Shown here: in pieces, positions 1,645 through 38,282 of the stretch
Position numbering within the stretch: the stretch's first letter is position 1
Layout of the letters: each line of letters opens with the position of its first letter
Origin: a virus
Strand: one strand, 5' to 3'
Length of the DNA stretch: 64,000 nucleotides
IMG/VR virus record: IMGVR_UViG_3300013947_000003
Coordinates: 32,923 to 96,922 of that record
The notes under the pieces: generated by a model
Databases searched by the model: none
What the model saw: only the letters and a program-made list of their open reading frames with translations
What the model was told of the DNA's origin: nothing
Made by a program: the position numbers and the translations under genes

Positions 1645-1647
1645 AGT

Positions 1648-3557: not shown

Positions 3558-3640
3558 TTATTTATATGTCAAAATTAACAACAATGCTAAACAACAAAGG
3601 CAATACTCTGTATTATAGAATATTGCCTTTAGTATTGTTT

Positions 3641-4698: not shown

Positions 4699-4736
4699 AC
4701 TATCCTTTCTTTAGTCCTGCTTTCGGAGTTAGAGGC

Positions 4737-5129: not shown

Positions 5130-5133
5130 CGGA

Positions 5134-5520
5134 TTAAGATTTTTTTAGTTTATACCATGTTATTGCGGCACCTCCTATTATAAATGCAGCACCTAACCAC
5201 ATTAATAACTTTTGATACCATTTAATTTTATTAACTTCTTTCACTTCAGTTTTTGTTATATATATCGGCGTTTCAATAGAGTCTTTCTGTATCATAGTAT
5301 CAGTATGATTTAGATATTTATAAATGTACTTATACTTATATAAGTACAAGGTATCACCATTTACAAATCTGTCAATACTATCATGAACATATATACTGTC
5401 TATTTTTAATGTATTTATATATTCTGTTTTTACTTTTTCTATAGGAACTTCTTTTTCTATTATTTTAGTAGACCCACAAGCAACTAGAAAAACAAGAATA
5501 ATTATTAATAAATATCTCAT
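5134..5520 (-). CDS. Lipoprotein with C-terminal TM segment (unimolecular spanin candidate)
   Basis: Signal peptide plus lipobox LVAC|G. C-terminal hydrophobic LLMWLGAAFIIGGAAITW. TAA stop. Confidence 0.55.
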   Translation of the reverse strand: MRYLLIIILVFLVACGSTKIIEKEVPIEKVKTEYINTLKIDSIYVHDSIDRFVNGDTLYLYKYKYIYKYLNHTDTMIQKDSIETPIYITKTEVKEVNKIKWYQKLLMWLGAAFIIGGAAITWYKLKKS

Positions 5521-7797: not shown

Positions 7798-8580
7798 TTA
7801 ATCTATTAAGGTTACTATTACTTTATTCAAACTTGCATTTGCTTCAATTTCAGTCACACTATAAAACTCTACCTTAATCCTTTTTTGTATATGTTCTACA
7901 CTACTACCAACATCAATAGTAGTTTCTGTAATATATGTAGGTCTTAATTCCTAACTATAATTAGTTTTAAAAGCAAAGTTTGTAGAAGTAAAATCTAACT
8001 TACAAGGAACTCCTGTTTGTGTATTACCACTTAAAGTATTTGTTATGATTATATATGGAACATGATAATAATAAATTGCTTTTCCCACAGCTTCCCATTT
8101 ATTATTGCTGGTAATAGTGGGTGTTATAGCAATATCACGTGTGATGCTAACTGTATCCATAGAAAGTTCATGAAGGTTATCAATCTAAATTACAGGTATA
8201 GCCAAAGAAGACTCAGTGCCTTTATAAGTAGTAAAGTTGTCACTAAGCACATTAACACTGTTATTAAGGGTAGTAACGGTATTATTTACAGTAGTAACAG
8301 TATTATTTACAGAAGTAATAGACTCTTTAATATTGTCCGTCTCACTTTGAAGAGTTACAATATCTTCTTTTATACCTGATATATAGTCAGCCGTATCATC
8401 CGCATTATTTACAGACCTCCAATTTCCGTCTACAAATTGATACAGTTTACTCCCAGGATATTCACTTTTATCCTCTTCAGGATTTTGTAAAGATTCAACG
8501 TATTTACCTGCTTTTATCCACAAAACATTATGTTCTTCAGGAGCTTTTTTTGAATATACTATATCTTTATATTTTATCAT
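7798..8580 (-). CDS. Tail-fibre-like protein; TAG-recoded
   Basis: Track ORFs 8185..8580 and 7951..8160 are in one frame, joined by TAG 8185-8187. TAG 7951-7953 is read through to TAA 7798-7800. Confidence 0.6.
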
Positions 8581-10982: not shown

Positions 10983-11007
10983 ATATCTTTCAACTTTAAA
11001 TTTTATA

Positions 11008-11015
11008 CAAAGGTA
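11008..11015 (-). promoter_or_regulatory. Bacteroidota-type -7 element (TACCTTTG on minus strand)
   Basis: 26 nt upstream of the portal ATG, in the only gap between terL and the portal gene. Confidence 0.4.
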
Positions 11016-16159: not shown

Positions 16160-16173
16160 AATATTAAATTTAG

Positions 16174-16246
16174 TCGCCCCACTCAGAGTCGAACTGAGAT
16201 CTTCAGATTTAGAGTCTGTAGTAATAAACCGTTATACTATAGGGCA
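16174..16246 (-). tRNA. Amber-suppressor tRNA, anticodon CUA (reads UAG)
   Basis: Minus-strand sequence tgcccta ta gtataacggtttattac t acaga CT-CTA-AA tctga agat ctcag ttcgact ctgag tggggcg a. Cloverleaf with a canonical T-loop. The anticodon corresponds to plus-strand tag at 16210-16212. Confidence 0.75.
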
Positions 16247-17592: not shown

Positions 17593-18353
17593 CTTATAAT
17601 AATATTTTTTGTAGAAAATCCTTCTTTTATTTGTACTTTAGGAAGTATTGTAACTGTATAATCATACCCGATGCCATTACATATAGCATTTGGATTGGTT
17701 TCTGTAATATAGAATGTTTCTCTTCCTGTAGTATAATTTGCTAGATCCTAGCATTCTGTACTTATACTATAACCTCCAGAACTTTCTGTAAACTGATCAG
17801 ATGTGGTTAAAGTTGCTACAGTACTTAGTACACCTATATTAAAATCTGGGGAATATGAGTTATAATATAAAAATGAATATTTATTACTAAATAATTCAGT
17901 CCTACTTAATATTAAATTTGGAGAAGTGTCTTTTTGGTAGTCTAGAAGATTTTTATAAGAATCATTATGATCTGGTACCCCTATATAAACATTTGCTGTA
18001 AGTTTTACTCCTTCAGGGAAATCATTTCTTAATACCTGTATACCCCGATATATTCTAAAATTATCACCTTCTACATTGCCTGCCAGCATCCCCGAATAAT
18101 TGTCAGCAAAGGGAAGATTTGAAGTGTCAGTACTTGGAATAACAGTTTTAAAGTAATCACCTATTACAACAGTATATATATCATCTTTATCTATATAATA
18201 AACAGGATCAGTAATAGCAAAATTGGCTTTTGGGCTATCATCTCCAATACTATCAAGAACTTCCCAATACTTCAAATTATTCTTCTGCTCTTCAAGACTA
18301 CCACCACCAGAGACAATAGTCTTACCATTTCTTTTACCTATAATATGTTTCAT
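17589..18353 (-). CDS. 254-aa virion-module protein; TAG read through
   Basis: Track ORF 17748..18353 ends in TAG. The same frame continues for 52 codons to TGA 17589-17591, which overlaps the next ATG (ATGA). Confidence 0.6.
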
Positions 18354-18415
18354 CTTTTACTTAATTTTAAGCATATTATTAGCGTTCCTATTAATCAACC
18401 TTTATTATAAAAATT

Positions 18416-18700
18416 AGAGATTATAGAGAGACCTGCCCCACTTTTCGCCAAATTGGGAGCCTGGCATAGGTAATTATAGCCCTTGGGGCGTTTATATAAT
18501 ATTAGTCTACCTCTCTTATCTCTAGCTTCCATTTACCTCTGCCCTACTACTAGTACCCTTTATTCTCCTAGGTTGGCCGGAAGACCCGCAGACTATAATT
18601 ACCTCATCTCTAACACTCTATGGTGTTTAAAGGCTATGTGATTAACAGTACTTGACCGTTCACTTCTTATAAGAAGCACTGCAAAGTTACATAAAATATT
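18416..18700. ncRNA. Candidate structured RNA or regulatory element in the divergent intergenic region
   Basis: No ORF. Richer in G+C than the flanks. Perfect 12-nt inverted repeat aggtaattatag (18469-18480) / ctataattacct (18592-18603). GCCCCA (18434-18439) / TGGGGC (18484-18489). Hairpin cttcttat/ataagaag at about 18663-18678. Confidence 0.3.
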
Positions 18701-18832
18701 TTTAAAAAACAAACTATTAATAAAATCCTAATAATACTATTAATGAAAAATGTTCAATGTTTAGAATATTAACACTTATTAAATTTCTTTTCTAGAGTAG
18801 TTAAAATATGTATATCACTGTTAATAATTTAA

Positions 18833-19026
18833 TTTTTTATTTTTTATATTTGTAAGGATGTGGAGGGTAAAATAATAAAAATTTTTATACTTATAGGAAT
18901 GAGGTATTTTAATTTTTTATATCTGTAAAATGGAGTATTCTAAGTTTATAAAAATAAAAGTTTTTTATTTGTAAAGATGGGGGCATTTTTAAATTTTTTA
19001 TATATTTATATAAACGAGGTATTATT
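18833..19026 (+). repeat. Five degenerate tandem repeats (about 33-47 bp), consensus TTTTTTATATnTGTAAAGATGGRGGTATTTT
   Basis: Copies start near 18841, 18878, 18913, 18961 and 18994. Some contain TAnnTTTG-like boxes (tatatttg). Confidence 0.55.
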
Positions 19027-19029
19027 ACC

Positions 19030-19042
19030 CACTCCTCCCCAC
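19030..19042 (+). repeat. Left copy of the 13-nt direct repeat CACTCCTCCCCAC
   Basis: An exact copy recurs at 25122-25134. Confidence 0.45.
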
Positions 19043-19480
19043 CCCTGGCGAGCCAGGGGGATATCCCCCGGGGGGCTATATATCACAGTAGTCCCAACAT
19101 GGCCCATACAGCCGAACATTGCTGCTATGGCCCAATTAATGCTTGCTAGTGTTCACTCAACTTCAGGAGTGAGGGAGCTGACCTATTCAGCCTTATAATT
19201 AACATGTTTCACTTAAAAACCATATAGGATATGAAAACAAAGCATTTCCTTATGGGGGCAAAGCAATAATTGCCTCAGCATTATTCTTTGCTGGGGCAAT
19301 TGCATATGTCTTCATCATTTGGACATCCTCCAAAGATGAGGACTAATGCCCCATGTTGGGTTGCCAACACCCAACGTATGTAGATAAAATTGGCCAACAT
19401 TATTCATTCTCCCCATCTCCTCTTTTTATTATTAACCCAAACCTTCACACTGGGAATATAGTCTATCTAGACTGGTTAAA

Positions 19481-19969
19481 GTGTATAAAAAAATGCGATA
19501 TATGTGGACGATAGAAAATGGGTACGGCCTGCTGCAAAAATGCAGCAATGCTGCAACCCTAGAAGGGGTCTTCACAGAAATTTTAGAAGAGATCCGGGAG
19601 CACTTTATAGTGTGCTCTATATGGACATCGTTTAGCGACAGGTATCCTATAAGGATACCTTTCACGGCAACTTCACTCCTCGGCGAATACTTCGCCGGGG
19701 AGGTGGTATATGATAAGGCGGAAAACCGCCTCATCATATATGAGGATGAATATTCTGCCCCCTCTAAAGAGGTGGCAAGACGGTGGTGCGAGGGGCCCAC
19801 CAAACCCAAAGAGTTGCTCTTATATTGGAGCAACTCTCCATTTAGGGCAGATGTGCAGAGGGCCTACAGCCACACAGCTCTCTGTGTGGCATTCCTGGCC
19901 ACGGGGGAAGTGGCCTCCTCATACGAGGAGGCGTGGAATATTGTTAGAGAGGCTGCTGAGCAGTCTTAA
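19481..19969 (+). CDS. Island hypothetical protein (162 aa)
   Basis: Track ORF followed by a hairpin. Confidence 0.5.
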   Translation: MYKKMRYMWTIENGYGLLQKCSNAATLEGVFTEILEEIREHFIVCSIWTSFSDRYPIRIPFTATSLLGEYFAGEVVYDKAENRLIIYEDEYSAPSKEVARRWCEGPTKPKELLLYWSNSPFRADVQRAYSHTALCVAFLATGEVASSYEEAWNIVREAAEQS

Positions 19970-20290
19970 CAATATCCCCAGGATGAGCTCAAGAGCGATT
20001 GAATAAAAGGCCCTACAAAGCCTTTTACTTCACTCTTGAGTTCACCAAAGGTGGGTGGCCTGTTGGGTTTGTAGGCACCCCAACATTAGACAAAAACCTA
20101 CAGCACACTGCTCCCTCAGTAATATTCTATGCCCTCCATTAATTGGTTGTAGCCCTCAGTTTGCATATTGTATTATATATATGTAAACTTCTCTTTAGTT
20201 ATGCATAGTTTCAGGTCATTCTTATCCATAGAATGGCTTGTTACTAATGCTGTATGTCTCGTTGATTTATTAACTCTTAACCTCAAAGAT

Positions 20291-20599
20291 ATGGAGTTAC
20301 ATAATTATACTCCTCACACAATCTCTTTGAATAATGGCACACAGTTCCCCTCTGAAGGGTTGGCTCGTGTGGCCAATACATTCACAGAGTTTGTGGAAGG
20401 TATCTGTGAGGTACACTTTGGAGACATCCAAGGACTTCCTGAGCCTCAGGAAGGTGTCCTGTATATAGTGTCTGCACTTGTATTGTCTGCAGCTAAGGCT
20501 GCTGGCCGTACAGATTGTGTGGCACCTGCGACAGGACATCCTGATTGCATCCGTGATGCAAAAGGATTTATCCTGAGTGTGCCTGGCTTTGTTCGATAG
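20291..20599 (+). CDS. Island hypothetical protein (102 aa from the internal ATG)
   Basis: In frame with track ORF 20168..20599. The ATG at 20291 is the first one after the AT-rich leader. Confidence 0.5.
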   Translation: MELHNYTPHTISLNNGTQFPSEGLARVANTFTEFVEGICEVHFGDIQGLPEPQEGVLYIVSALVLSAAKAAGRTDCVAPATGHPDCIRDAKGFILSVPGFVR

Positions 20600-20714
20600 A
20601 ATAGAGCCTTCACGGAGTTTTCACCTTGCAAAATAATGGGAGTTTTGTAAGGGCTTTCCTTGGCAACAGAATAAAGCCAGGTTCCCATAATGTTTAATTC
20701 ATAATATTATAATA

Positions 20715-20960
20715 ATGTTAGCATTGTTACAATATAATGAAAGCGAGGTCTATAGCAGCAGCCTCTTTCTTAACAAAGAAGAGGCTAAACTGCAATTCGC
20801 CAAGCTCAAAGAAGAGTTTGCCAAAGAGGAAGGCAATACCTTCGAAGAACTTGGTGAGGGCCATTTTACATGGTGTTCTTGGGACAGCCTGGAATTCCAA
20901 TATGTAAAATTGGTGGACCTCGGTCCCTCCTTAAGGGAATACTTTGGAGTAAACCTTTGA
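20715..20960 (+). CDS. Island hypothetical acidic protein (81 aa)
   Basis: Track ORF. Hairpin actttggg/cccaaagt follows. Confidence 0.5.
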   Translation: MLALLQYNESEVYSSSLFLNKEEAKLQFAKLKEEFAKEEGNTFEELGEGHFTWCSWDSLEFQYVKLVDLGPSLREYFGVNL

Positions 20961-21163
20961 GAACTTTGGGTTTATGCTTTCCCAAAGTATAGATAAAAAA
21001 GCACAATATTAAAAAACTTATATCCCTATGAGTTTCTTTTATTAAAAGTTTTAGATTAGGGACCTTGTTTTAATCTCGGTTTCACACCACTATATTATAT
21101 AGTGTGTTATAGTGGTGGCTTTATTAAAGTATATCACACACTACCACCAAAACATATACATCT

Positions 21164-21310
21164 ATGGAAACATTTGATGTTATGTGCCTCCTAACAGTAT
21201 TGCTTATAATAGCAATTCTGGGAGGCATTGTGTTCCTCCTAGAGGCCACCCCACTGTGGAAGAAGTTTCAAAACTTCATTCTCCACATATGGGGTGGAGA
21301 GGAAGACTAA
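21164..21310 (+). CDS. Island small membrane protein (48 aa)
   Basis: METFDVMCLLTVLLIIAILGGIVFLL.. has one TM segment. Below the track length cut-off. Confidence 0.45.
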   Translation: METFDVMCLLTVLLIIAILGGIVFLLEATPLWKKFQNFILHIWGGEED

Positions 21311-21426
21311 CTCACTCTCCTCTCTCCTCACCTCTACTCCTCATTCACTTAATTCTAACCAAAACCTCCCAGGTAGTAAGGGTGTATTCCCAAGCTTATA
21401 AAGCTGTTAAGACCTGTTCAAAAATC

Positions 21427-21816
21427 ATGACAAAATTTAATTTTGCTTACAATCGTCTTCGTGAAGCCTACATGGCATTCACACACAGCCGTTCGTACAA
21501 CTCCTTTCAGGCATGGTATAATGAGTGCCACTACATAGATTGGGTGTGGGGGTATTATGGGGGAATTTTCGAAAGGGCGGACTACTATAGTAGTCCGCAA
21601 AAAGAAAGAGCGCAGAGGGAGTGGGAGAGCTTCCTCCTAAGGACCGCTAAGATATTTGATATCTTAGCGGACTGCACAGACTGGCACGAATCTGTGCCGT
21701 ACTTCTATAAGAACGGAGACCCAGAGGCGACTCTCCGTCAATTCTTCCCAGAACTGGAAGAAGCAGACAGAATAAAGAGGGAATCCTCTTTAGGGAAGGA
21801 CTACTTCCCATTCTAA
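21427..21816 (+). CDS. Island hypothetical protein (129 aa)
   Basis: Internal ATG of track ORF 21184..21816. The 5' part of that ORF overlaps the small TM gene. Confidence 0.5.
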   Translation: MTKFNFAYNRLREAYMAFTHSRSYNSFQAWYNECHYIDWVWGYYGGIFERADYYSSPQKERAQREWESFLLRTAKIFDILADCTDWHESVPYFYKNGDPEATLRQFFPELEEADRIKRESSLGKDYFPF

Positions 21817-21898
21817 TACTCCTAGAAAAAAACTAGTACCCCTAGAGTTTCTACATGAGTAGTTTTAAATAGGGGTTTCACTTAAATCCTATAAAACA

Positions 21899-22186
21899 AT
21901 GAAAAAAGGATTTTATGAGTTCAAAGAAGAACTCCTTCAGCAAATAGATGCTGAAATAGAAAATGCACCTCAACAGTCAATAACTGTTGAGGAATTTGAG
22001 GAATACCTCAACATCCACAATAAAGTAACTAAGTGTGTTGACACCATAGGGCTACTAAAGCTAGCCCAAACCTTTTACAGGACACGCTTGTTTAGTGTTT
22101 GTAGTACCCCGGACTCCCCAACAACGTCTTCCATAGAGTACTATCTGGGGAAGCTCCAAGAAGTAAGGAGGGAGCTTTATGGATGA
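21899..22186 (+). CDS. Island hypothetical protein (95 aa)
   Basis: Track ORF that overlaps the next gene. Confidence 0.55.
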   Translation: MKKGFYEFKEELLQQIDAEIENAPQQSITVEEFEEYLNIHNKVTKCVDTIGLLKLAQTFYRTRLFSVCSTPDSPTTSSIEYYLGKLQEVRRELYG

Positions 22187-22442
22187 GAGGCTCTATGAGT
22201 TATTGTTGGATTTGACAATCCACATGGCTCAAAGGAGATTCGATCAAAGGATCTCCAAAAGAGATCTCTCTACATGGGATCTCTATGAGATATATGAGGA
22301 GCTAGACCTCCTCTATAACATGAAACGCACTGAATGGCCTACATTAGTGCGCCTTTCAAAAAAGTACATTGTGTACTTATTAAACCAAGAAGGGACAGAT
22401 AAACTGTTCTTTAAGTCCCTCCTGCAAAACCTAAAAGTATGA
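22179..22442 (+). CDS. Island hypothetical protein (87 aa)
   Basis: Track ORF with an ATGA overlap to the next gene. Confidence 0.55.
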   Translation: MDERLYELLLDLTIHMAQRRFDQRISKRDLSTWDLYEIYEELDLLYNMKRTEWPTLVRLSKKYIVYLLNQEGTDKLFFKSLLQNLKV

Positions 22443-22681
22443 GCGAATACTGGGAATGTCTCCAAAAGGATATCAAGGAGACCAAAGCAGCTGTGGAGGA
22501 CCTCAACAAACATCTTGAGAAAATCCGCCGTCTAAAAAGAGCTACTCCACAAGAACACGTGGAGAAACAAGAGGAGTTAAAACAAATAGAGCGAGAGCTC
22601 TCTAATGACCTAGACTACTATGAGTTGAAACTCCAAGACCTCACAAAAGAAGAGTGTATGTACGAGTACTTCTGCTCTTAA
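22439..22681 (+). CDS. Island hypothetical coiled-coil protein (80 aa)
   Basis: Track ORF. Hairpin cttggtgggc/gcccaccaag follows. Confidence 0.55.
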   Translation: MSEYWECLQKDIKETKAAVEDLNKHLEKIRRLKRATPQEHVEKQEELKQIERELSNDLDYYELKLQDLTKEECMYEYFCS

Positions 22682-22777
22682 AATCTGAGCAATTCACTTG
22701 GTGGGCTTAAATAGTATGGGCCCACCAAGGCTTTGTATAAGTCAACACATACTACCACATCTAAAACTTATAATACA

Positions 22778-22981
22778 ATGGAAAAGTTTTCAGATGACCC
22801 TATTTGGGTAACAAAAGATGGAGTTAAACTCCATCTTTCTGAGATGTCAACCAGGCATCTCATTAACAGTTTAAACCTTCTAAGGATTAACTGTGGGTGG
22901 AGAGAGCGCTTTGTAGTTCCCATGCTTCGGGAACTTAAAAGGCGTAACATGTTATTTGACTGGTGGTTCTATAATCTCTAG
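22778..22981 (+). CDS. Island hypothetical protein (67 aa), ends in TAG used as stop
   Basis: Internal ATG of track ORF 22733..22981. Confidence 0.5.
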   Translation: MEKFSDDPIWVTKDGVKLHLSEMSTRHLINSLNLLRINCGWRERFVVPMLRELKRRNMLFDWWFYNL

Positions 22982-23054
22982 TTAGCATAGAACTAATACC
23001 TTCCTAAGTTCTCAAGTTCTTAAAGGGAAGGTTCACTTAAAACGCATAACAACA

Positions 23055-23339
23055 ATGGAAAACAAAACAAATGGAAGGTGTTTAGCTATCATAGATAGCA
23101 TCACCTATAATCTTAGGATGCTAGTAGCCACACCGAAACATCCTAATGGAGGTGTATTCTATGTGTGGGCAGCAATACAAGCCCACTATCCATATGAGGT
23201 ACACTTCATTACAGAGTACCAAGGGATGTACCTTGTAGATCCTCGGGTACTCTGCAAAGCAGATAGGAGTACCATAGATAATATGGAACTAGAGGCTAAA
23301 AGCCTTAGAATCTTAGTATACGAACAAAAAATAAAATAA
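23055..23339 (+). CDS. Island hypothetical protein (94 aa)
   Basis: Track ORF. Confidence 0.55.
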   Translation: MENKTNGRCLAIIDSITYNLRMLVATPKHPNGGVFYVWAAIQAHYPYEVHFITEYQGMYLVDPRVLCKADRSTIDNMELEAKSLRILVYEQKIK

Positions 23340-23376
23340 TATATAACACTCTAACTAAAGCTTGTAGGCTGCTCTA

Positions 23377-23691
23377 GTGTGGAACCTTCAAATAATTATG
23401 AACATACAGCGTTCCTTCACACTTCTTATCTACTCCATCCTGGCAAATAAGCCCCACACACTCTTTGCAGATAGCTTATATCCTGTTAGAGGGATGGCTT
23501 TTAAACAAGGAGGCCACCTCTATACCTCAAAGATACATCTGGGGTATATGTTCTACCTAAGCACCCCATACTCAAATGGTAGGTGCTTTGACCTGCTTGT
23601 AATAAGGCAGGGAGAGCAGGTTGATGAACACTGGGGAATAGTGCTTCCCGTAGACACTTTAAAATCTATTATCAATTACCTAAAATACTAA
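23377..23691 (+). CDS. Island hypothetical protein (start uncertain; alternative ATG 23494)
   Basis: Track ORF. Confidence 0.45.
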   Translation: MWNLQIIMNIQRSFTLLIYSILANKPHTLFADSLYPVRGMAFKQGGHLYTSKIHLGYMFYLSTPYSNGRCFDLLVIRQGEQVDEHWGIVLPVDTLKSIINYLKY

Positions 23692-23702
23692 CCACCAAAA
23701 CA

Positions 23703-24161
23703 ATGAAGTTAATAATCCGGCTTCAAAGTAACGTGAATACGTTGCTTACAAACCATTCCCTAGATGGGAAAAGGTTTCATAATCATGTGGTTTTCTATCT
23801 TAACCTTCATAAAAAGATAGAGCAAAACAGATTCAATCTGTTTAAGACGGCGCTTGTTAATAAACTTAACAGGTGCTGTCCTGAGTTTGAGGATGTATCC
23901 ATCAAGCAGGTTAAACACCATGCTTATGATGGGGCAAAAACAATTAACCTCAAAAACCAGCTTTGGGCACTAAATGCCGCAAGTGAGGAATATATGCTAG
24001 AGTTAGTTCTCAAATACATCGTCGATATACTGCGCCTTAATTGTACGCTAAGCAACTATGAAGGCATTGGCGAAAAAGCCTTTATAATAGCAGATACAGA
24101 TGATAACATGTTTGAGTATATACTCAATACATATAAAAACGGGGTCATTATAGACGCCTAG
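23703..24161 (+). CDS. Island hypothetical protein (152 aa), TAG stop
   Basis: Track ORF. Confidence 0.55.
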   Translation: MKLIIRLQSNVNTLLTNHSLDGKRFHNHVVFYLNLHKKIEQNRFNLFKTALVNKLNRCCPEFEDVSIKQVKHHAYDGAKTINLKNQLWALNAASEEYMLELVLKYIVDILRLNCTLSNYEGIGEKAFIIADTDDNMFEYILNTYKNGVIIDA

Positions 24162-24186
24162 TATCTGTAATCAAATATCTAAAATA

Positions 24187-24363
24187 ATGGATAAAGAAAA
24201 GAGGCTTGAAGAGCTGCGGTTTGATATAATGCGGCAAGAACTTATCAGTGGATACCTAAATGAAAGACTGATAGAAGTATCAAAGAAACTCAAAGAACTG
24301 CGTAAAGAAGAAGATGACCTTGAAAGGCAAATCTTCGAAGAACTTGAAGCAGAAGAATACTAA
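24187..24363 (+). CDS. Island hypothetical coiled-coil protein (58 aa)
   Basis: ATG 24187 to TAA 24361-24363. Below the track cut-off. Confidence 0.4.
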   Translation: MDKEKRLEELRFDIMRQELISGYLNERLIEVSKKLKELRKEEDDLERQIFEELEAEEY

Positions 24364-24548
24364 ACCATCCTATATAATAGTGCCCTTGAGGAGTAAAATC
24401 CTTGAGGGCATTATTTTTTTCTGCCCGCTTGCGCGTGCAAGTCACTCTTTCCCATGCATGGAAGGCAAGGTTGCCAATGAGAGGTTCAACCACCTTCCAC
24501 ATCTTTTCACTTAAAACCTTATGGTGTATAGGTTAACCGTATACTGTT

Positions 24549-24836
24549 ATGTCTAAGTCAATTCTTAGCGGCAAAGTTTATGCAGGTTCTTGGAATCTCG
24601 ACTCCACTGAAAACCTCAGCCAAGAGGAACTCAATGCCTTCGAGAAGGCCACGGTGGTAGATTCCATGTATGGACTTTCTTGCTGCTTTCTAATGCATAG
24701 CGGCGAGAAGATCTACGTCCCCATGGCCACCCAAAGTGGGGCCAAAGCAGGGGATGTCCTTGACTTGCACACCATGAAGAAACTCACCCTCTCCAAATCA
24801 GGAGAGGAAGATATTCTTCGTATCATGGAGGGATAA
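24549..24836 (+). CDS. Island hypothetical protein (95 aa)
   Basis: Track ORF, the last gene before a strong terminator. Confidence 0.55.
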   Translation: MSKSILSGKVYAGSWNLDSTENLSQEELNAFEKATVVDSMYGLSCCFLMHSGEKIYVPMATQSGAKAGDVLDLHTMKKLTLSKSGEEDILRIMEG

Positions 24837-24861
24837 TTAAACCCCCTCCTTCCGCTCTACA

Positions 24862-24901
24862 TACCCTCCTGGGAATTATTCCTGGGAGGGTATTTTTTTT
24901 T
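24862..24901 (+). terminator. Rho-independent terminator ending the island operon
   Basis: taccctcc...ggagggta hairpin followed by T9. Confidence 0.7.
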
Positions 24902-24984
24902 CAGTCACCTCTCTCATCTAAGTTTCCATTACTATTTATTAATCTATATTAACATTAATTAATAGTAATAACATTACTTTATAT

Positions 24985-25054
24985 TGGTATATTACCAATT
25001 ATACCATACTTTTTATTGGTTTATTACCAATTTATACTATTGGTATGTTACCAA
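24985..25054. promoter_or_regulatory. Three copies of a 15-bp palindromic operator-like site, TTGGTA-N3-TACCAA
   Basis: ttggtatattaccaa (24985-24999), ttggtttattaccaa (25016-25030), ttggtatgttaccaa (25040-25054). Confidence 0.55.
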
Positions 25055-25121
25055 TTTTATCACAACAACCTCACTATATGTGTGGGTTATGTTGTTGAAT
25101 ATCAGTGAGTTACAGATGTCC

Positions 25122-25134
25122 TCACTCCTCCCCA
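25122..25134 (+). repeat. Right copy of the 13-nt direct repeat CACTCCTCCCCAC
   Basis: Exact match to 19030-19042. Confidence 0.45.
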
Positions 25135-25258
25135 CAGTTGGTGGTGCACCGAGTAACTTATAAAAAATCAAAAGGATAAGTTAAATTATAGCTTTTTTTA
25201 CCCGCTATTAATTCTCCTCCTTTTTGGTTTTTTATTTGCACACCTTAAAATTTATATA

Positions 25259-25266
25259 TAATTTTG
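25259..25266 (+). promoter_or_regulatory. Bacteroidota-type -7 element TAATTTTG
   Basis: Ends about 10 nt before the tRNA-Leu 5' end. Confidence 0.45.
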
Positions 25267-25276
25267 TATAAAATAA

Positions 25277-25362
25277 GCCCTTATGATGGAATTGGTAGAC
25301 ATGAGAGACTTAAAATCTCTTGGCCATTATTGGCTGTGTGGGTTCGAGTCCCACTAGGGGTA
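25277..25362 (+). tRNA. tRNA-Leu (anticodon UAA), type II with long variable arm
   Basis: gccctta tg..aattggtaga.. agaga ct-TAA-aa tctct, variable arm tggccattattggctgtg, T-arm tgggttcgagtccca, 3' strand taggggt a. Collinear with bacterial tRNA-Leu(UAA). Confidence 0.8.
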
Positions 25363-25394
25363 CAATTAACAGTATTAACTTAAAACTAAACAAA

Positions 25395-25859
25395 ATGGAG
25401 TACATTTACAAGATGACTTTAGTGGCAGGTGGAACCACTATCTGTACAAGAAAAGTAAGAACAAAAGAAGAAGGTGAATTTCAAGCAAAAGAAATTCTAA
25501 AAAACAGACAAGATGTAGTAAAAGTGGAATACTATATCAAAGAAGGAGAAAAAAATAAATGTAATCCTTCGAAAGAAGAAAAAGTATATAACTACATACT
25601 CAAAACGTACTCACAGTTATACGAAACTCCCCTTAAAAAATACCCTAATGTATCTACATTAGCGGTTTTTGGTGCTACATCTAAAATAGTAGATGATATA
25701 GAGAGCTATCTTAATATATCTTTTAATGGAGATAGGACATCTTTAGAAGAAGGAGCTCTCTTCATACGCAAACATATAGAAGACCTCTATAATGCAATAG
25801 AAAAGTATAAAATGGACCTCTATAATGCCGACATAGTCGATATTATAGACACATATTAA
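25395..25859 (+). CDS. Hypothetical 154-aa early protein
   Basis: Internal ATG of track ORF 25320..25859, whose 5' part overlaps tRNA-Leu. Confidence 0.5.
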   Translation: MEYIYKMTLVAGGTTICTRKVRTKEEGEFQAKEILKNRQDVVKVEYYIKEGEKNKCNPSKEEKVYNYILKTYSQLYETPLKKYPNVSTLAVFGATSKIVDDIESYLNISFNGDRTSLEEGALFIRKHIEDLYNAIEKYKMDLYNADIVDIIDTY

Positions 25860-26025
25860 ATGACGTCCTACTTTCTTGTAGGAACATGTACTATGTTACA
25901 GCAGTACTAAAAAAGTCCCAGAAGATGTTGGTGACAAAGCAACCTTCTTAAAATCTATCTGCTACATCGACACTTTGTCCGTATGAGATGTATGATAGAG
26001 GTTAGAGACAATTGGTACTCTAACA

Positions 26026-32740: not shown

Positions 32741-33727
32741 ATGTTTAGCCACGGACAGCCAACTATATCAATAGATGATGTTTTAAAACATACTACTGAA
32801 GCAGATATTGCTTCAAAGTACCTAGGGATAAATAAAATTCCTACGGTCATTTGTAGTCCTTTAAGAGAAGATAAAAAGCCTTCCTTTGCAATATATTCTC
32901 CTGATGATAAAAGTGTAAACTATCGAGATTTTGCTAATGGGGATAAAGGAACTATTTTTACCTTACTTTCTCATATATGGAATACTTCATTTAGAGAAAC
33001 TCTTAAAAGAATAAATGATGACAATGTTCATAGTTCAATTAGTATTAGGAAAACTATCTCTAAAAACAGCATTATTAGAAACTCTCGCATAGAACTTTTA
33101 TGTAAAGTAAGAGAATGGAGAGATTATGATATAGAATATTGGAAGTCTTATGGTGTACCTTTAAAGTGGCTAAAATATGCAGATGTATATCCTATATCTC
33201 ACAAAATAATAAAAAAAAACAATGAGACTTTTATATTTGGTGCAGATAAGTATGCATATGCATTTGCGGAATTTAAAGAAGGCAAAACAACTTTAAAGAT
33301 ATATCAACCTTTTAATAAACAAGGCTATAAGTGGTCTAATCAACATGATAAAAGTGTAATAAGTTTATGGACTAAAGTGCCTTCTTTTGGGGATAGAGTA
33401 TGTATATGCTCCTCCCTAAAAGATGCACTATGTCTATGGGCTAATACAGGAATTCCTTCAATTGCCATTCAAGGAGAAGGCTATAGTATGAGTAATACTG
33501 CAATTAATGAACTCAAAAGGCGTTTTAAACAAGTTTTTATATGTTTGGATAATGATCCTCCGGGCTTGTTAGATGCACAAAAGTTAGCTTCAAAAACAGA
33601 GTTTATTAATATAGTTCTTCCTAATGAATACAATCAAAAAGACATTTCTGACTTATACAAATATTTAAACAACAAACAACTCTTTATTAACATTTTTAAA
33701 AAGCTTTTTAATTATGGAACCTCGTAA
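32741..33727 (+). CDS. DnaG-type (Toprim) DNA primase
   Basis: Toprim motifs ICSSLKDALCLW and VFICLDNDPPG. N-terminal PLREDKKPSF segment. Confidence 0.7.
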   Translation: MFSHGQPTISIDDVLKHTTEADIASKYLGINKIPTVICSPLREDKKPSFAIYSPDDKSVNYRDFANGDKGTIFTLLSHIWNTSFRETLKRINDDNVHSSISIRKTISKNSIIRNSRIELLCKVREWRDYDIEYWKSYGVPLKWLKYADVYPISHKIIKKNNETFIFGADKYAYAFAEFKEGKTTLKIYQPFNKQGYKWSNQHDKSVISLWTKVPSFGDRVCICSSLKDALCLWANTGIPSIAIQGEGYSMSNTAINELKRRFKQVFICLDNDPPGLLDAQKLASKTEFINIVLPNEYNQKDISDLYKYLNNKQLFINIFKKLFNYGTS

Positions 33728-34310
33728 AATTTATGTAGTAGACACTCGCCGTGAAAAAACAACTATTACAACAGGTGCAGAAACTCTTGGCGAACTCAAA
33801 GAAGCACTTCACAATCACAATATTGAATGTGATGGTATGACATTCTTTGAAGGCTATAGTGCTGTAGAATTAAAGGACGACTCTTCACAACTTCCTAAGG
33901 ATGTAAAGAAGCGTAATGGCGAAACTACGAATGAGCTTCTTATTATGATTACAAATTCCGCTAAAAAGATTAAATCAGGAATGATGTCTCGTCAAGAGGT
34001 TTATAATAAGATTAAAGAATTAAATCTTGCTGCTAAAACACGTGAACACTTTGGTAAACCTTATACACAGATATCTACAGCAGAGCTATTAAGCTTTATT
34101 GAAGATCAAAAATATCCCGCAGAAAAGTGTGGTTATGCTGAAGATCTTCGTACAGCTTTAGCTCAGCTTACTAATCTTCTTGTAGAAAAAGAAGTTATTT
34201 CTCGTGCAGAAGCAACTGAAGCTATGCGTTCAGTTAAATGTGAATGGGAAGAAAAAGTTGATTTCCCTTCAGATGAAGAAATCGACGAGATGTTTGCGAA
34301 ATTTAAATAA
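33714..34310 (+). CDS. 198-aa protein; the N-terminal ~85 aa has a beta-grasp/ubiquitin-like sequence pattern (hypothesis)
   Basis: KIYVVDTRREKTTITTGAETLGELKEAL..MTFFEGYSAVELKDDSSQLP..LLIMITNSAKKIKSG, then a helical C-terminal half. Confidence 0.5.
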   Translation: MEPRKIYVVDTRREKTTITTGAETLGELKEALHNHNIECDGMTFFEGYSAVELKDDSSQLPKDVKKRNGETTNELLIMITNSAKKIKSGMMSRQEVYNKIKELNLAAKTREHFGKPYTQISTAELLSFIEDQKYPAEKCGYAEDLRTALAQLTNLLVEKEVISRAEATEAMRSVKCEWEEKVDFPSDEEIDEMFAKFK

Positions 34311-34327
34311 TTAATTCTATTAAACTA

Positions 34328-34373
34328 AAGGGAGAGTGAGAGTTTCATCATCTTGCTCTCCCTTTATTTTTTA
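34328..34373 (+). terminator. Rho-independent terminator
   Basis: aagggagag/ctctccctt hairpin followed by tatttttt. Confidence 0.6.
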
Positions 34374-34375
34374 TT

Positions 34376-35392
34376 ATGGAAAGTATACAGAAAGACATTT
34401 GTTCAAGATTTATAGACTTCTTTGGAGAAGACTTTGTTGATGTACAAGAACCAGCTAATACATCTACTATTAAAATAATAATATATTTTCCTAAACTAAC
34501 GGTAACTAATGAGGGTAATGACAGTATTGACATTAAAGATACTTATGTAAGGTTTAGTATATATGATGACGGTTCTATAAGCACGCACATTAATGTAGCA
34601 AGGGCTTATTATACATATAAACAATATGCCAGTCATTATGTACATAGTCATTGTCCCAGATTTAATACGCCAGGCCAATGGTCAGCCTTTTGTTTAGGAA
34701 CAGGTCCTATAACATTTACTATGTTTAATATTTGTAGAAATATTACAAATGGTAATGTAGATTTAGACCTATATACGCTCTTTGCAAGTGAGCTAAAACT
34801 ATTATTAGGAGTGGAGTCTTTAGATGGAGGTCCTTACATAACATTAAGTTCTGTACATAATTATACCGAATATCTGGAAGAACTACAAATTCAATATAAT
34901 ATAAAGATGAGAGACTCTTTAATGGATGGATTTATAGACTATTTATGTAGAATACAACCATTTGAGTTTAATTTTAACGGTTATTATTATGGATTTGCAT
35001 ATAGTACTTCGGATTTAATGATATTAATGGCAAATGAGTTTATAAAGTATTGTAATACCTTTAGCGAGGATAAAAGGCCTAATATGGATACTTTATTTTC
35101 ATTAGGAGTTTTGTGTAAAGGATTTAAACGTTCTGGACGTATTTATAAATACACTAACGGAACATTAAGTGTTAATAATATACCAAAAGCAACTGCTATT
35201 ACTTTCAAAGGAAAAGTTGTTCCTTTAATAGTTGAACCTGATAAATCAAATAAAAAGTCCTATATAGTACTTTTAAATCCTAGTAAATTTGCATATGTAA
35301 CAACAACAATATTAGAAAGACTAAATTATGCAGCAACAAGTGGAAATCACCCAGAATCACCAAGTATCACCATACTTAATTGTGGGCAGTGA
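34376..35392 (+). CDS. 338-aa protein with an E2/UBC-like active-site pattern (hypothesis)
   Basis: YVHSHCPRFNTPGQWSAFCLGTGP (HxH at nt 34643-34651, Cys at 34691-34693) resembles the E2 pattern HPN..G.ICL. First gene of an operon with overlapping genes. Confidence 0.55.
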   Translation: MESIQKDICSRFIDFFGEDFVDVQEPANTSTIKIIIYFPKLTVTNEGNDSIDIKDTYVRFSIYDDGSISTHINVARAYYTYKQYASHYVHSHCPRFNTPGQWSAFCLGTGPITFTMFNICRNITNGNVDLDLYTLFASELKLLLGVESLDGGPYITLSSVHNYTEYLEELQIQYNIKMRDSLMDGFIDYLCRIQPFEFNFNGYYYGFAYSTSDLMILMANEFIKYCNTFSEDKRPNMDTLFSLGVLCKGFKRSGRIYKYTNGTLSVNNIPKATAITFKGKVVPLIVEPDKSNKKSYIVLLNPSKFAYVTTTILERLNYAATSGNHPESPSITILNCGQ

Positions 35393-36377
35393 TGTAGAAA
35401 ATAAAATAAAATATCTATGTAATAAAATACCCGACACTGAATGGTCAGGAGTATTATTTTACAAAACAAAAGATACTTATGAAGAGGGACTTAAAGTTAT
35501 ATGTGTAGATTTATATTTAATGGATATAGGAACTATAACATATACTGAATTTAATACTTCCCCCTCCCTTGCTCATTATATTGCAATGAATGATTTGTTT
35601 GAATATGAACAAGCGTTAATTCATTCGCATAATCACATGGCTACCTGTCCTAGTGGCACTGATATTGCTACACTAAAAGAAGAAGGCAGTGAAAGAATAC
35701 ATTTTGTATCATTAATTGTTAATAATGCAGGTACTTATAGTGCGTTTATAACTAGAAAATGTATTACTATTCAAAATATTGAAGAAACTGCAAAATACAA
35801 AACTTTTGGTGGTGTAGAAGTGGAATCTAAGAATATATATACAAAAGAATTAACTAAAATAGAGTATAGTAAAATGGAAATTATCAAAGAAGATATAGAC
35901 TATTCTGAAATTGATTCTAGAATAGCAGAAATACAAGAAGAAAAAAGGAAGCAAGAGGAATTAAGGAAAAAGGAAGAAATAAAAAATCCTTTTTATTATC
36001 AAAAAATATTTAATTACGAAGAGTATAAAAAGCCTTTAATAAATCTTCCTATTGATGATAAACAAGTACAAAGTATTCTAAGACAAATAATTACCGGTAG
36101 TGTTCTTTCTGCCAATAATATTAAACTGGATTTATATGAATGGGTTCCTAAAATGGAGTCTATATATGATCATAGATTTAAAACTTTAGATTCCTATAAC
36201 TGTTGGATAGACAGCTTTTTAGAAGCATTGTTTTCTGAGTATACCGAGGGAGAAGGCTTCTATAAAATAGATGAGGGTAGAAATCTCGCCGAAAAACTTT
36301 ATAATGAAATATCTAAGTTTACACCTAATAAATATATTAAAATTATTAAAAACAGTCTTTTATTATGGATGGAGTAA
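35328..36377 (+). CDS. JAB/MPN+ (JAMM) metalloprotease with a coiled-coil C-terminal extension
   Basis: Exact JAMM motif HSH-NHMATCP-S-GT-D (HxHx7Sx2D) at nt 35622-35663. Start uncertain (ATG 35328 or GTG 35381). Confidence 0.75.
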   Translation: MQQQVEITQNHQVSPYLIVGSDVENKIKYLCNKIPDTEWSGVLFYKTKDTYEEGLKVICVDLYLMDIGTITYTEFNTSPSLAHYIAMNDLFEYEQALIHSHNHMATCPSGTDIATLKEEGSERIHFVSLIVNNAGTYSAFITRKCITIQNIEETAKYKTFGGVEVESKNIYTKELTKIEYSKMEIIKEDIDYSEIDSRIAEIQEEKRKQEELRKKEEIKNPFYYQKIFNYEEYKKPLINLPIDDKQVQSILRQIITGSVLSANNIKLDLYEWVPKMESIYDHRFKTLDSYNCWIDSFLEALFSEYTEGEGFYKIDEGRNLAEKLYNEISKFTPNKYIKIIKNSLLLWME

Positions 36378-37174
36378 ATAATATAAGTGAAGATCTAATG
36401 GCAGAAATAAATGCTGCTATAGATGCAATAGAACAAGAAGAACAACAGCCTCTTCAAGAGAATTCTGAAACATTATTAGTAAAAGAGAATACCATTCGTT
36501 TTAATAGTGCAGAATGGTTTAATCAGATACAAAAAACATCAGTGGCTATTGCCGGTTGTGGAGGAATCGGCTCTTGGACATCATTATTAATAGCCAGATT
36601 GAATCCTATATGGATATATCTATTTGATAATGATACTGTGGAAGAGGTTAATCTTGCGGGGCAACTGTTTTCCAATAAAGATGTAGGAAGGTATAAAACA
36701 AACGCCTGTGTTGAGAATATAGCGAATTTTTGCAACTATTCTAAGTTCAATGCCTATAATAGAAGGTTTGAATGTGTCTCTATAGTGCATTCTAAAAATC
36801 TAATTTGTGGCTTTGACAATATGGCTGCTCGTAAAGATGCTTTTAAACAATGGTTTAATGCAAACAATGGAAACTCGGAAGCTATATTTATAGACGGAAG
36901 GCTTAATGCAGAAGATTTTCAGATTTTCTGTATTACAGGAGATAATGAGAGTGCGGCTCATAAATATAGTAAACAGTATTTATTTGACGACAAAGATGTT
37001 GAGAATGCAGTTTGTTCATACAAACAAACTTCATTTTGTGCTAGTATGATTGCGTCATTAATTACCAATCTGTTCGTTAATTATGCAGCTAATATAGCCT
37101 TAGGAGATTTTAGATGTCTTCCTTTTAAGATATCTTATGATGCAACAACTATGTTATTAAAGACTGAAGTATGA
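36365..37174 (+). CDS. ThiF/MoeB/E1-like adenylyltransferase
   Basis: IAGCGGIGS nucleotide loop; DNDTVEEVNLAGQ (compare DxDxVxxSNLxRQ); GFDNMAARK (compare CTDNMATRQ of ThiF). Confidence 0.8.
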   Translation: MDGVNNISEDLMAEINAAIDAIEQEEQQPLQENSETLLVKENTIRFNSAEWFNQIQKTSVAIAGCGGIGSWTSLLIARLNPIWIYLFDNDTVEEVNLAGQLFSNKDVGRYKTNACVENIANFCNYSKFNAYNRRFECVSIVHSKNLICGFDNMAARKDAFKQWFNANNGNSEAIFIDGRLNAEDFQIFCITGDNESAAHKYSKQYLFDDKDVENAVCSYKQTSFCASMIASLITNLFVNYAANIALGDFRCLPFKISYDATTMLLKTEV

Positions 37175-37770
37175 AAATATCGGATCACACCAAAGCAACA
37201 ATATTTAAATTTTTAACAACTGCTGATATTGTCCATCAATATAAGACGGACTACTCAATATCTTTAGTATATAATAATATGTGTTTTCCTAAAATATTAA
37301 GAAAGGAGATTGATATTGGTAATTTAGGAAATATAATAAGGGGTATACCTTTAAATATAGATCGTTGTCTTTTAAAAGTATCTTCAGTTTTAAAAACAAT
37401 AAAATATGCTCCAAGAACTAAATTAGCATTTTATAGTGTTGATAACAGTCTTAGATATTTTATTGGATGTGGATGTATATTCAATGACAAATTAGATCCC
37501 GTTTTACTATCATATTGTAATAAAACGGATCTGTTTGGAAGACAACATGCAAATTGTTTATATGCAAATATATATATAAATGCTTCGTTTATTAATAATA
37601 ACAATAAACTGAATAATTTTATAAGTAAAAAAATCATTCCAGTAGCTACAATATATAAACATAATGTTACTATACTAGATGATTCTAAAATGCGATCATT
37701 AGTATTTAAACCTAATAATGTTGGAACTGATAAAAATACTTGTTGGCATATGATAAATCTGCGACAATAA
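37171..37770 (+). CDS. Hypothetical 199-aa protein, last gene of the E2-like/JAB/E1 operon
   Basis: ATGA overlap with the E1-like gene. Confidence 0.55.
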   Translation: MKISDHTKATIFKFLTTADIVHQYKTDYSISLVYNNMCFPKILRKEIDIGNLGNIIRGIPLNIDRCLLKVSSVLKTIKYAPRTKLAFYSVDNSLRYFIGCGCIFNDKLDPVLLSYCNKTDLFGRQHANCLYANIYINASFINNNNKLNNFISKKIIPVATIYKHNVTILDDSKMRSLVFKPNNVGTDKNTCWHMINLRQ

Positions 37771-37785: not shown

Positions 37786-37793
37786 TACCTTTG
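37786..37793 (+). promoter_or_regulatory. Bacteroidota-type -7 element TACCTTTG
   Basis: Lies within the shared motif CTTTGCATA, 19 nt before ATG 37812. Confidence 0.45.
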
Positions 37794-37811
37794 CATATAA
37801 ATATTTTTATT

Positions 37812-38282
37812 ATGAAAACCGATATAAAGAAAATTACTTTTACAGAAGAGGAGTTTTCGAAATTCCTTATTGATTTGATTACAGATCCCAGTAAAGTATG
37901 CAGAGTTATAGATGAAAAGCTACAAAAACCCAATGCTCTGGACTTATACAGAAGAGCCATTGAAAAACTTGCATCTAAACTCAATTGGAAACCTGAAAAG
38001 CTTCTTAATATTCTAGATAGATTGAAAGAAGTCAATATTGTAGCAACGTTCTCCTTCATACTTAAACAAATAGCTATAGAGCTTGATAAAAAGTACGAAG
38101 ATCATATTATGCAAAGCCCCGAGCTTTACTGTATAAGCCTTTTTGATGGGACTATCTGTAAAATAACTCCCATTAAACATGGAAACTATTCTAATATAAC
38201 ATTATTCAGATCTGAAGAAGATGCTAAGACAGCTATAGAAGCACTAGAACCCATATATAAATTAATGTTTCCTGATGAATAA
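37812..38282 (+). CDS. Hypothetical 156-aa protein
   Basis: First ATG of track ORF 37791..38282. Confidence 0.5.
   Translation: MKTDIKKITFTEEEFSKFLIDLITDPSKVCRVIDEKLQKPNALDLYRRAIEKLASKLNWKPEKLLNILDRLKEVNIVATFSFILKQIAIELDKKYEDHIMQSPELYCISLFDGTICKITPIKHGNYSNITLFRSEEDAKTAIEALEPIYKLMFPDE

Follow-up and report, generated by a model that had tools for sequence, protein, structure and literature searches.

Until now, the CBASS Cap2/Cap3 proteins and the Bil and Bub systems have been described as defences of the host against phage. In the Bub system, the fusion protein BubAB, which carries a ubiquitin-like (Ubl) domain, was shown biochemically to be cleaved behind a conserved Gly, and the JAB domain of BubCD makes this cut (PMC11601596). 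Here we found the same enzyme logic in the core replication block of a very abundant human-gut phage group. The analysed DNA, hereafter the window, was a stretch of 64,000 nucleotides (nt) from a crAss-like phage (IMG/VR virus record IMGVR_UViG_3300013947_000003, positions 32,923 to 96,922 of that record). It contained at 33714-37770 a cassette of five genes encoding a Ubl precursor, an E2 candidate (E2c), a JAMM/MPN+ metalloprotease (JAB), a minimal E1/ThiF-family adenylation enzyme (E1) and a fifth conserved protein (Z). Thousands of related phages, among them the cultured crAss001 and DAC15, share this set. The cassette is a phage-borne variant of the prokaryotic Ubl/E1/JAB(/E2) systems, for which an E2 step and conjugation are proposed. 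Its best reading, to which we give about an even chance, is a phage-encoded ubiquitin-like protein conjugation pathway. The evidence comprises the family of the E1, the intact JAMM motif of the protease, a beta-grasp domain with a flexible Ser-Gly tail, strict synteny and invariant candidate catalytic residues.

Two of the five genes had already been labelled in a relative. The annotation of phage crAss001 gives gp76 as ThiF and gp77 as metalloprotease/MPN, and the supplementary genome map of Yutin 2021 draws ThiF and MPN, while the genes on either side, those of the Ubl, the E2 candidate and the fifth protein, bear the names 'uncharacterized AXQ62718, AXQ62721, AXQ62722'. One sentence of a 2026 preprint mentions a gut-phage family resembling UBA5. 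The preliminary description of this DNA had regarded the set as undescribed in crAss-like phages; this was too wide for the ThiF and MPN genes and stood for the rest, since none of the open-access literature that we searched described the Ubl, the E2 candidate or the fifth gene, or treated the set as a single system.

Gene set and conservation

The five open reading frames (ORFs) were all on the plus strand and reproduced the coordinates of the preliminary description exactly. The motifs quoted there were also all found at the expected codons: GCGGIGS, NLAGQ and GFDNMAARK in E1, HSH-x7-S-xx-D in JAB, and YVHSH...CLG in the protein of 338 amino acids (aa). The features were as follows, with the genes taken from the ORF listing and the hairpin from RNA folding:

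33714-34310, plus strand: Ubl precursor gene, 198 aa, crAss001 gp79 family
33978-33980, plus strand: codon of Gly89 of the Ubl, end of the KKIKSG tail
34326-34376, plus strand: intrinsic-terminator-like hairpin and U-tract, between the Ubl gene and the enzyme genes
34376-35392, plus strand: E2 candidate gene (E2c), 338 aa, crAss001 gp78 family
34643-34651, plus strand: HSH of E2c, invariant
34691-34693, plus strand: Cys106 of E2c, invariant
35328-36377, plus strand: JAMM/MPN+ metalloprotease gene (JAB), 349 aa, crAss001 gp77 family
35439-35441, plus strand: Glu38 of JAB, invariant in relatives
35622-35663, plus strand: HSH-x7-S-xx-D of JAB, at the expected codons
36365-37174, plus strand: minimal E1/ThiF-family adenylation enzyme gene (E1), 269 aa, crAss001 gp76 family
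36554-36574, plus strand: GCGGIGS of E1, at the expected codons
37013-37015, plus strand: Cys217 of E1, in the motif C-S-x-K-Q, invariant in relatives
37171-37770, plus strand: fifth conserved gene (Z), 199 aa, crAss001 gp75 family

The genes of E2c and JAB overlapped by 65 nt, those of JAB and E1 by 13 nt and those of E1 and Z by 4 nt, and a 65-nt gap between the Ubl and E2c genes held the terminator hairpin. The E2c/JAB overlap (35328-35392 in the window), in which the two genes are read in different frames, was conserved, with a median of -62 nt in 77 loci.

With the E2c profile we collected 80 IMG/VR loci. The order Ubl, E2c, JAB, E1 on one strand was present in 73 of them, and the other seven were cut by contig ends. 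The same order was found in crAss001, DAC15, bajarodcaudo virus 1, Dulem virus 41 and Flavobacterium phage Fpv3, and in 11 loci from genome bins. These 11 were all that JAB-derived patterns picked out of 185,579 species genomes; they lay on short or ~94-kb contigs in bins of incompatible taxonomy, and all those long enough to tell carried the same cassette, so that they are most likely mis-binned phage. The classified relatives all belonged to Crassvirales, Steigviridae, Asinivirinae. The prototype crAssphage was not among the 85 phage records matching E1. The window phage itself recurred in many metagenome assemblies, on contigs of ~96-101 kb.

The mean pairwise identity was 58-60% in the catalytic cores and the beta-grasp domain, 45% in the N-terminal domain of E2c, and 25-33% in the C-terminal extensions and Z; the low values of the last two fit specificity modules. 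Between the window and the cultured relatives the enzymes were ~25-45% identical, with order and catalytic residues unchanged. Because residues of catalytic type were invariant in 70-77 relatives and the order was kept in every uncut locus, the cassette is not a chance arrangement; it is real, ancient and strictly conserved.

Ralstonia phage Dina (locus L004, a 39-kb phage) contained at positions 947-5299 a complete PRTRC cassette (PRTRC_E, Prok_Ub, alpha-hel2, Prok-E2_D, DUF2016+JAB, ThiF), so other Ubl-type cassettes travel on phages too. ThiF-like genes were also found in Xanthomonas, Acinetobacter and Burkholderia phages.

Probable ubiquitin-like precursor

A beta-grasp domain had been suspected at the N-terminus of the first protein, and the predicted model and its Foldseek matches bore this out. 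The AlphaFold2 (AF2) model showed an N-terminal domain of beta-beta-alpha-beta-beta...beta topology with predicted local distance difference test (pLDDT) scores of 86-95, and directly after the last strand the residues 83-89 were modelled as disordered (pLDDT <50). Foldseek against PDB returned SUMO1, ubiquitin (variants), UBX and ISG15 with probability 1.00, E ~4e-4 and template modelling (TM) scores of 0.55-0.66 per target; ThiS and MoaD were absent from the top 50 matches. No family match was obtained in Pfam, PHROGs, NCBIfam or PADLOC. In the protein, the beta-grasp domain (1-82) was followed by the flexible tail KKIKSG (84-89), then by a helical segment that is conserved (90-133) and, beyond a variable linker, by an acidic C-terminal tail. 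K84, S88, G89 and R93 were invariant in 76 relatives. Fpv3 gp55, which BLAST had missed, showed KQVKSG at the tail position, and a remote relative showed DVKSG, with [IV]-x-S-G in common. In its fold and its flexible tail ending in Gly, the domain as modelled is a ubiquitin-like beta-grasp modifier, whose Gly89 would be exposed by cleavage.

The Ser-Gly was never terminal: more protein, in the form of a fused C-terminal domain, always came after the tail, and this suggests that a precursor is cleaved behind Gly89; this layout, a tail followed by more protein, matches that of the Gly-cleaved precursor in the BubAB/BubCD pair. The C-terminal part gave faint HeH/LEM matches in two of 39 members (E = 0.04). 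It ended in an acidic aromatic tail, SDEEIDEMF-x2 (34275-34307 in the window), of which SDEEIDxMF was kept in most relatives. Acidic C-terminal tails for protein interaction are known in SSB, T7 gp2.5 and T4 gp32, and the tail of the precursor recalls these. By this analogy, replication proteins may be bound through it, either by the intact precursor or by the C-terminal fragment after its release.

Adenylation enzyme and protease

The assignment of the third enzyme gene to an E1/ThiF-like protein was confirmed by its motifs, by Pfam and by profile matches in PDB. Pfam ThiF (PF00899) matched at 2.8e-17 (63.1 bits vs a cut-off of 28.1), which places the protein in this superfamily of adenylation enzymes. 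With the family profile the best PDB match was UBA5 (7e-15), followed by MccB, Uba1, PaaA, MoeB, UBA6, SAE2, the NAE1 partner, ThiF, BubCD (8e-8) and Cap2. R45, GxGG, D88, D90, N96, Q100, K111, D151, R156 and C217 were invariant in 70 distinct relatives. The NCBIfam equivalogs of the ThiF/MoeB sulfur-carrier enzymes remained below their cut-offs (NF006395 58.8 vs 159 bits, TIGR02354 55.3 vs 152.2), and those of SAMP E1 and PRTRC_ThiF were far under theirs. By these profile comparisons the phage E1 is a distinct minimal enzyme, assignable neither to the sulfur-carrier nor to the conjugation clade. The order of the motifs suggests that Cys217 sits where the crossover-loop catalytic Cys of UBA5, MoeB and ThiF lies; a profile search with the C-terminal half alone gave no match. 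The plasmid relatives of E1 were microcin C7 MccB-type genes.

The exact JAMM motif reported for the second enzyme gene was complete and invariant (E38...H99-x-H101-x7-S109-x2-D112), and this sequence pattern assigns the protein to the JAMM/MPN+ enzymes. The profile support was weak and consistent. Pfam Prok-JAB matched at E = 3.6e-4 (20.8 bits, below the 25-bit cut-off), and several homologues carried PF14464 or were named 'RPN8/RPN11' by their source. Among solved structures, the family profile matched Pyrococcus furiosus JAMM1 best (5lda, E = 1.2e-3), with the motif aligned. The C-terminal extension of ~200 aa was poorly conserved. The family contained 2920 clusters at the 90% level. Public gene calls of JAB (285 aa) begin 64 codons late and lose the invariant Glu38; for this reason we consider the long start (349 aa) correct.

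E2 candidate

The preliminary description had compared the 338-aa protein with E2 enzymes. The YVHSH...CLG motif was there and the order of helices and strands was UBC-like, while no sequence, profile or fold search reached an E2. The AF2 model (pLDDT 88.5) showed in residues 1-145 a helix, a four-stranded meander, the HSH loop, the Cys, a helix and another helix. The UBC/RWD order of secondary structure is helix, four strands, loop, Cys, two helices. The N-terminal domain spanned residues ~1-160 and was followed by a C-terminal domain (161-325) without a recognised fold. N45, E46, Y88, H90, S91, H92, C106, G108, G110, P111, E147, S148, G151 and P153 were invariant in 77 relatives. Among the weak Foldseek matches in PDB, the members of the UBC superfamily were the sole recognisable folds (RWD 2ebk, Ctf19/Mcm21, Atg3 3vx8_C, Ufc1 3evx; E 0.2-1.1, TM 0.30-0.37), and against BFVD the matches were uncharacterised crAss-like homologues.

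An exhaustive profile search gave 3268 representatives of the family at the 50% identity level, and among the best 150 full-length members of these we found no bridge to known E2 families. Since JAB and E2c both carry an HSH, we also considered E2c as an inactive MPN partner of JAB. This was rejected, because hhalign of the two profiles found them unrelated and the MPN fold was missing from the top 50 Foldseek matches. The E2 reading therefore draws on the order of secondary structure, the invariant residues and the gene context, the sequence and fold routes having failed; we consider it likely, short of proof, that the 338-aa protein is an E2.

Fifth gene and expression

The gene at 37171-37770 had been counted in the operon, and its membership was shown by a profile of positional counterparts. 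A BLAST comparison of the window protein with its positional counterparts in five reference phages gave no match. We then clustered the genes following E1 in the 72 IMG/VR loci with a readable gene there, together with the five reference-phage counterparts; all formed one family except those of Dulem virus 41 and Fpv3. The family profile, built without the window sequence, matched the window Z at E = 4.8e-14. Z showed the conserved motif YYG..G.I.D and had no match among Pfam or PDB sequences.

The terminator that had been placed at 34328-34373 proved real as a structure: 34326-34366 folds as a 16-bp hairpin, followed by UUUAUUUUUUAUU. The hairpin had -23.9 kcal/mol (z = -6.05, none of 200 shuffles as good), and a simple terminator scan had missed it because its loop exceeds 8 nt. 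A GC-rich hairpin with a T-tract was present 3' of the Ubl gene in 76 of 79 related loci; of 395 control coding segments, 6 had one. From locus to locus the stems varied in sequence. In many relatives (L049, L052, L060, L042 and others) we observed between the Ubl stop and the hairpin a conserved stretch, CATAACTGTTTGG...TTGTG, which is absent from the window and may be a regulatory or processing site.

A promoter box had also been proposed at 37786. A single TAccTTTG was there, and it fits what we take to be the Bacteroidetes -7 consensus, TAnnTTTG; this consensus was not enriched in the window (43 found on the plus strand vs ~41 expected), which leaves the point about the promoter box weak. 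A sigma-70 promoter scan is uninformative for a Bacteroidetes phage. No TAnnTTTG was seen between the terminator and the start of E2c, so the enzymes are probably expressed by read-through, below the level of the Ubl.

Proposed pathway and alternative explanations

In the conjugation pathway that we propose, the JAMM/MPN+ protease would cut the 198-aa precursor after Ser88-Gly89, giving an 89-residue Ubl with a C-terminal Gly and freeing the helical/acidic C-terminal domain. The minimal E1, probably a homodimer, would adenylate Gly89 and probably carry the Ubl as a Cys217 thioester. The Ubl would then be handed to Cys106 of the 338-aa protein, acting as a very divergent, non-canonical E2-like enzyme, and the target lysines would be picked by the fast-evolving C-terminal domain of E2c, by Z, or by both. 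The JAB enzyme could reverse the mark, and the terminator after the Ubl gene would keep the tag in excess over the enzymes. A fuller claim is that this is a self-contained Ubl conjugation pathway of lytic phages, a hallmark of the Steigviridae (beta-crAss group) and related Flavobacterium phages, which tags host or phage proteins during replication. Its parts would be a precursor in which the Ubl is joined to a DNA-binding-like/acidic domain, a minimal E1 with a Cys, a JAMM protease, an E2-like family not recognised before (>3000 clusters at 50% identity) and, as the fifth, a specificity factor. Taken with all these parts, we hold this claim tentatively, at slightly under an even chance.

Several points weigh against conjugation, for which the evidence is computational throughout. 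No natural Ubl variant ended at Ser-Gly, so that no stand-alone Ubl gene speaks for cleavage. In E1, the near-universal Arg of the NLxRQ ('RQ') motif was Gly in all 70 relatives, the enzyme was about equally close to the ThiF/MoeB-type sulfur-carrier enzymes and the Ubl-activating E1s, and Cys217 could not be aligned with the crossover-loop Cys of UBA5/MoeB/ThiF, the profile alignments ending at residue 161. The window E2c had no match in Pfam, NCBIfam, PADLOC or PHROGs, the Pfam Prok-E2 models matched none of 60 family members and four remote ones, and the family profile matched no PDB sequence. Likewise, hhalign of E2c with PRTRC_B/Prok-E2_D and with four canonical E2s gave no match, and Foldseek of the whole model against PDB gave none at E < 0.1. 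With every E2 test on the 338-aa protein failed and E1, JAB and Ubl well supported, conjugation might proceed without an E2, as in the archaeal SAMP, TtuB and Urm1-type systems; in that case the 338-aa protein and Z would play some other part, as targets, as adaptors or as a Cys/His enzyme unrelated to E2s. Archaeal SAMPylation is known to need only an E1 and a JAMM protease, and JAMM1, the best solved relative of the phage JAB, comes from a SAMP-type system. We nevertheless regard an E2-less scheme as unlikely, because the 338-aa gene stands between Ubl and JAB in every locus and overlaps JAB by ~62 nt, and because the protein keeps its Cys and His invariant in a UBC-like order of helices and strands.

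Trios of a Ubl, an E1 and a JAB that perform no conjugation are known, and the Ubl could be a sulfur carrier, adenylated and then thiocarboxylated for a thio-nucleotide, a tRNA base or a cofactor, with JAB only maturing it (compare CysO/Mec+ and the JAMM-cleaved MoaD-MoaE). On this reading, GenBank's 'thiamine biosynthesis protein ThiF' would be a more or less correct label. The top NCBIfam matches of E1 were indeed ThiF models, the PDB profile search put MoeB and ThiF only a few orders of magnitude behind UBA5, and genes of nucleotide metabolism and DNA surround the cassette. Yet the equivalog scores lay far below the cut-offs (58.8 vs 159 bits), the Ubl model matched SUMO, ubiquitin, UBX and ISG15 with ThiS and MoaD outside the top 50, and its tail is Ser-Gly, not Gly-Gly. 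Family searches of the five genes found no rhodanese, cysteine desulfurase, PP-loop ATPase or synthase partner, and two extra conserved proteins without such a role are always present, so that we find a sulfur carrier improbable. Equally improbable, in our estimate, is interference with host defence, in which JAB would strip host Ubl marks (Cap3-like deconjugation of cGAS, or Bil conjugates on virions) and E1 and Ubl would be decoys for Cap2 or Bil enzymes. Most anti-defence genes are patchy in distribution, while this cassette is fixed in the replication block across Bacteroides and Flavobacterium phages; a decoy, moreover, could do without catalytic residues that are fixed in each of the proteins, and without a Ubl precursor of its own whose cleavage-type motif never varies. 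What speaks for interference is that the PADLOC E1-E2 (Cap2-type) models matched the phage E1 with E down to 1e-9, that host CBASS and Bil use the same enzyme folds (PMC10097602, PMC11601596), and that the 2026 preprint raises phage homologues of bacterial ubiquitination-like proteins for its gut-phage UBA5-like family.

If the cassette does conjugate its Ubl, it would be the first pathway of ubiquitin-type tagging to be ascribed to a bacteriophage, as far as the literature we found goes, and an offensive mirror image of bacterial Bil, Bub and CBASS, with a new E2-like family and a new architecture of Ubl precursor. The analysis also corrects the widespread mis-annotation 'thiamine biosynthesis protein' (GenBank: ThiF) and names three 'hypothetical' families. 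Cultures exist of crAss001, DAC15 and the Fpv phages, which makes the pathway directly testable. From the tail K-x-I-[K/R]-S-G one would expect a simple signature in mass spectrometry, a Ser-Gly remnant of +144.05 Da that stays on lysine after trypsin.

Genomic setting

The placement of the cassette in the replication module of a crAss-like phage was supported by synteny with crAss001, DAC15 and others, in which the block runs primase, the five genes, (uracil-DNA glycosylase, UDG), resolvase, PD-(D/E)XK exonuclease and ribonucleotide reductase. In the window a primase gene preceded the cassette, and genes for a resolvase-like endonuclease, a PD-(D/E)XK exonuclease and a ribonucleotide reductase followed it. 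The same replication block was found in crAss001, DAC15, bajarodcaudo virus 1 and Dulem virus 41. In Flavobacterium phage Fpv3 the five-gene set adjoins primase, UDG and exonuclease, and UDG is on the upstream side there. The five genes ended in TAA or TGA and contained no in-frame TAG. Together with the place beside primase and UDG in the replication block, this suggests an action on replication or host-takeover proteins in early or middle infection.

A suppressor tRNA with anticodon CTA, which reads UAG, was located at 16173-16246 on the minus strand. Minus-strand ORFs in the first 1-16 kb of the window lengthened if TAG was read as sense, to 812 codons with 18 in-frame TAG and 745 codons with 21 (e.g. 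8577-11015 and 11062-13299). This block, taken as late/structural, thus seems to read TAG as a sense codon, and some crAss-like phages have been reported to do so. The region ~18000-26000 had a G+C content of 0.36-0.41 vs ~0.30 elsewhere and no ORF of at least 300 codons under the standard, TAG-sense or TGA-sense code, and Rfam gave only tRNAs nearby (25277, 26322, 26442). Directly downstream of Z, the listed TTG start of the gene at 37791-38282 is probably wrong; an ATG lies at 37812, 26 nt after the -7-like TAccTTTG. Its product belongs to a conserved, uncharacterised family (crAss001 gp73, DAC15_85).

Comparison with known systems

The order Ubl, E2, JAB, E1 had been likened to that of Bil, PRTRC and CBASS. 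The resemblance to Bil and PRTRC held for the order, and the cassette belonged to neither of them nor to CBASS Cap2/Cap3. Bil (BilABCD) has the same four roles in the same order and no E3 gene (PMC11601596). Its E1, BilD, is a large IAD-AAD-CYS enzyme, whereas the phage E1 is a single adenylation domain of 269 aa and the phage Ubl is a fusion precursor. The PADLOC model of BilD covered 84 residues of the phage E1 (E = 2.7e-5), no matches to BilA, BilB or BilC were found, and the PADLOC JAB model reached E = 0.011 on the phage JAB. In CBASS, Cap2 is an E2-E1 fusion encoded beside a CD-NTase and an effector, and Cap3 is a JAB. The PADLOC E1-E2 models aligned to the core of the phage E1 only, the E2 candidate is a separate gene, and there was no CD-NTase among the neighbour genes scanned.

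The archaeal SAMP/UbaA/JAMM systems and the Caldiarchaeum ubiquitin operon are similar in their minimal E1 and in a JAMM protease that matures the Ubl precursor and removes the Ubl. SAMP systems are not known to use an E2, while in the Caldiarchaeum operon an E2 can be recognised, along with a RING E3. Both differ from the phage cassette in that they are not known to be phage-borne or to have a C-terminal fusion domain on the Ubl or a fifth gene.

PRTRC, for which Ralstonia phage Dina (gp02-gp07) served as the example, shares the order Prok_Ub, (helical protein), E2, JAB, ThiF on a mobile element or phage. Its ThiF proteins aligned with the phage E1, the invariant Cys included, and PRTRC_A JAB was weakly related to the phage JAB (hhalign E = 1.5e-4). 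The phage E1 scored 51.7 bits against TIGR03736, under the cut-off of 144.75, and the models of PRTRC A, B, C, E and F matched none of the phage proteins. Profiles of E2c, Ubl and Z, compared with Dina Prok-E2_D, Prok_Ub, alpha-hel2 and gp01, showed no similarity.

In type I Bub (BubAB/BubCD/BubE; formerly 6E.1), an N-terminal Ubl fusion is freed after a conserved Gly by the JAB of the same operon (Ye et al. 2024, PMC11601596), and the phage precursor would be processed likewise. Both have a minimal ThiF/UBA5-like E1 without IAD or UFD, and a diverged E2 (in the phage, the candidate) that sequence searches do not detect. Bub differs in its Ubl-E2 and JAB-E1 fusions, whereas the phage proteins are all separate and the Ubl is fused to a helical/acidic domain. 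It differs also in its Cys-less E1 and in a Ser-based E2 that forms oxyester intermediates (PMC11601596), whereas the phage E1 and E2 candidate each have an invariant Cys. Bub has a DUF6527 serine protease, for which Pfam gave no match in the phage set; and it is a bacterial defence island, whereas the phage set is carried by a lytic phage together with a fifth gene of a new family. Bub types I and II have a Ubl-E2 or an E2-E1 fusion; with its unfused genes, the Cys in both E1 and E2 candidate and no DUF6527, the phage set thus falls outside both types as their features are given in PMC11601596. Lacking the defining features of Bil, PRTRC, CBASS Cap2/Cap3 and Bub, it is to be filed under none of these. 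By analogy of working mode, it would stand closest to type I Bub, for its precursor cleavage and minimal E1, and to PRTRC, for its gene order and carriage on mobile elements.

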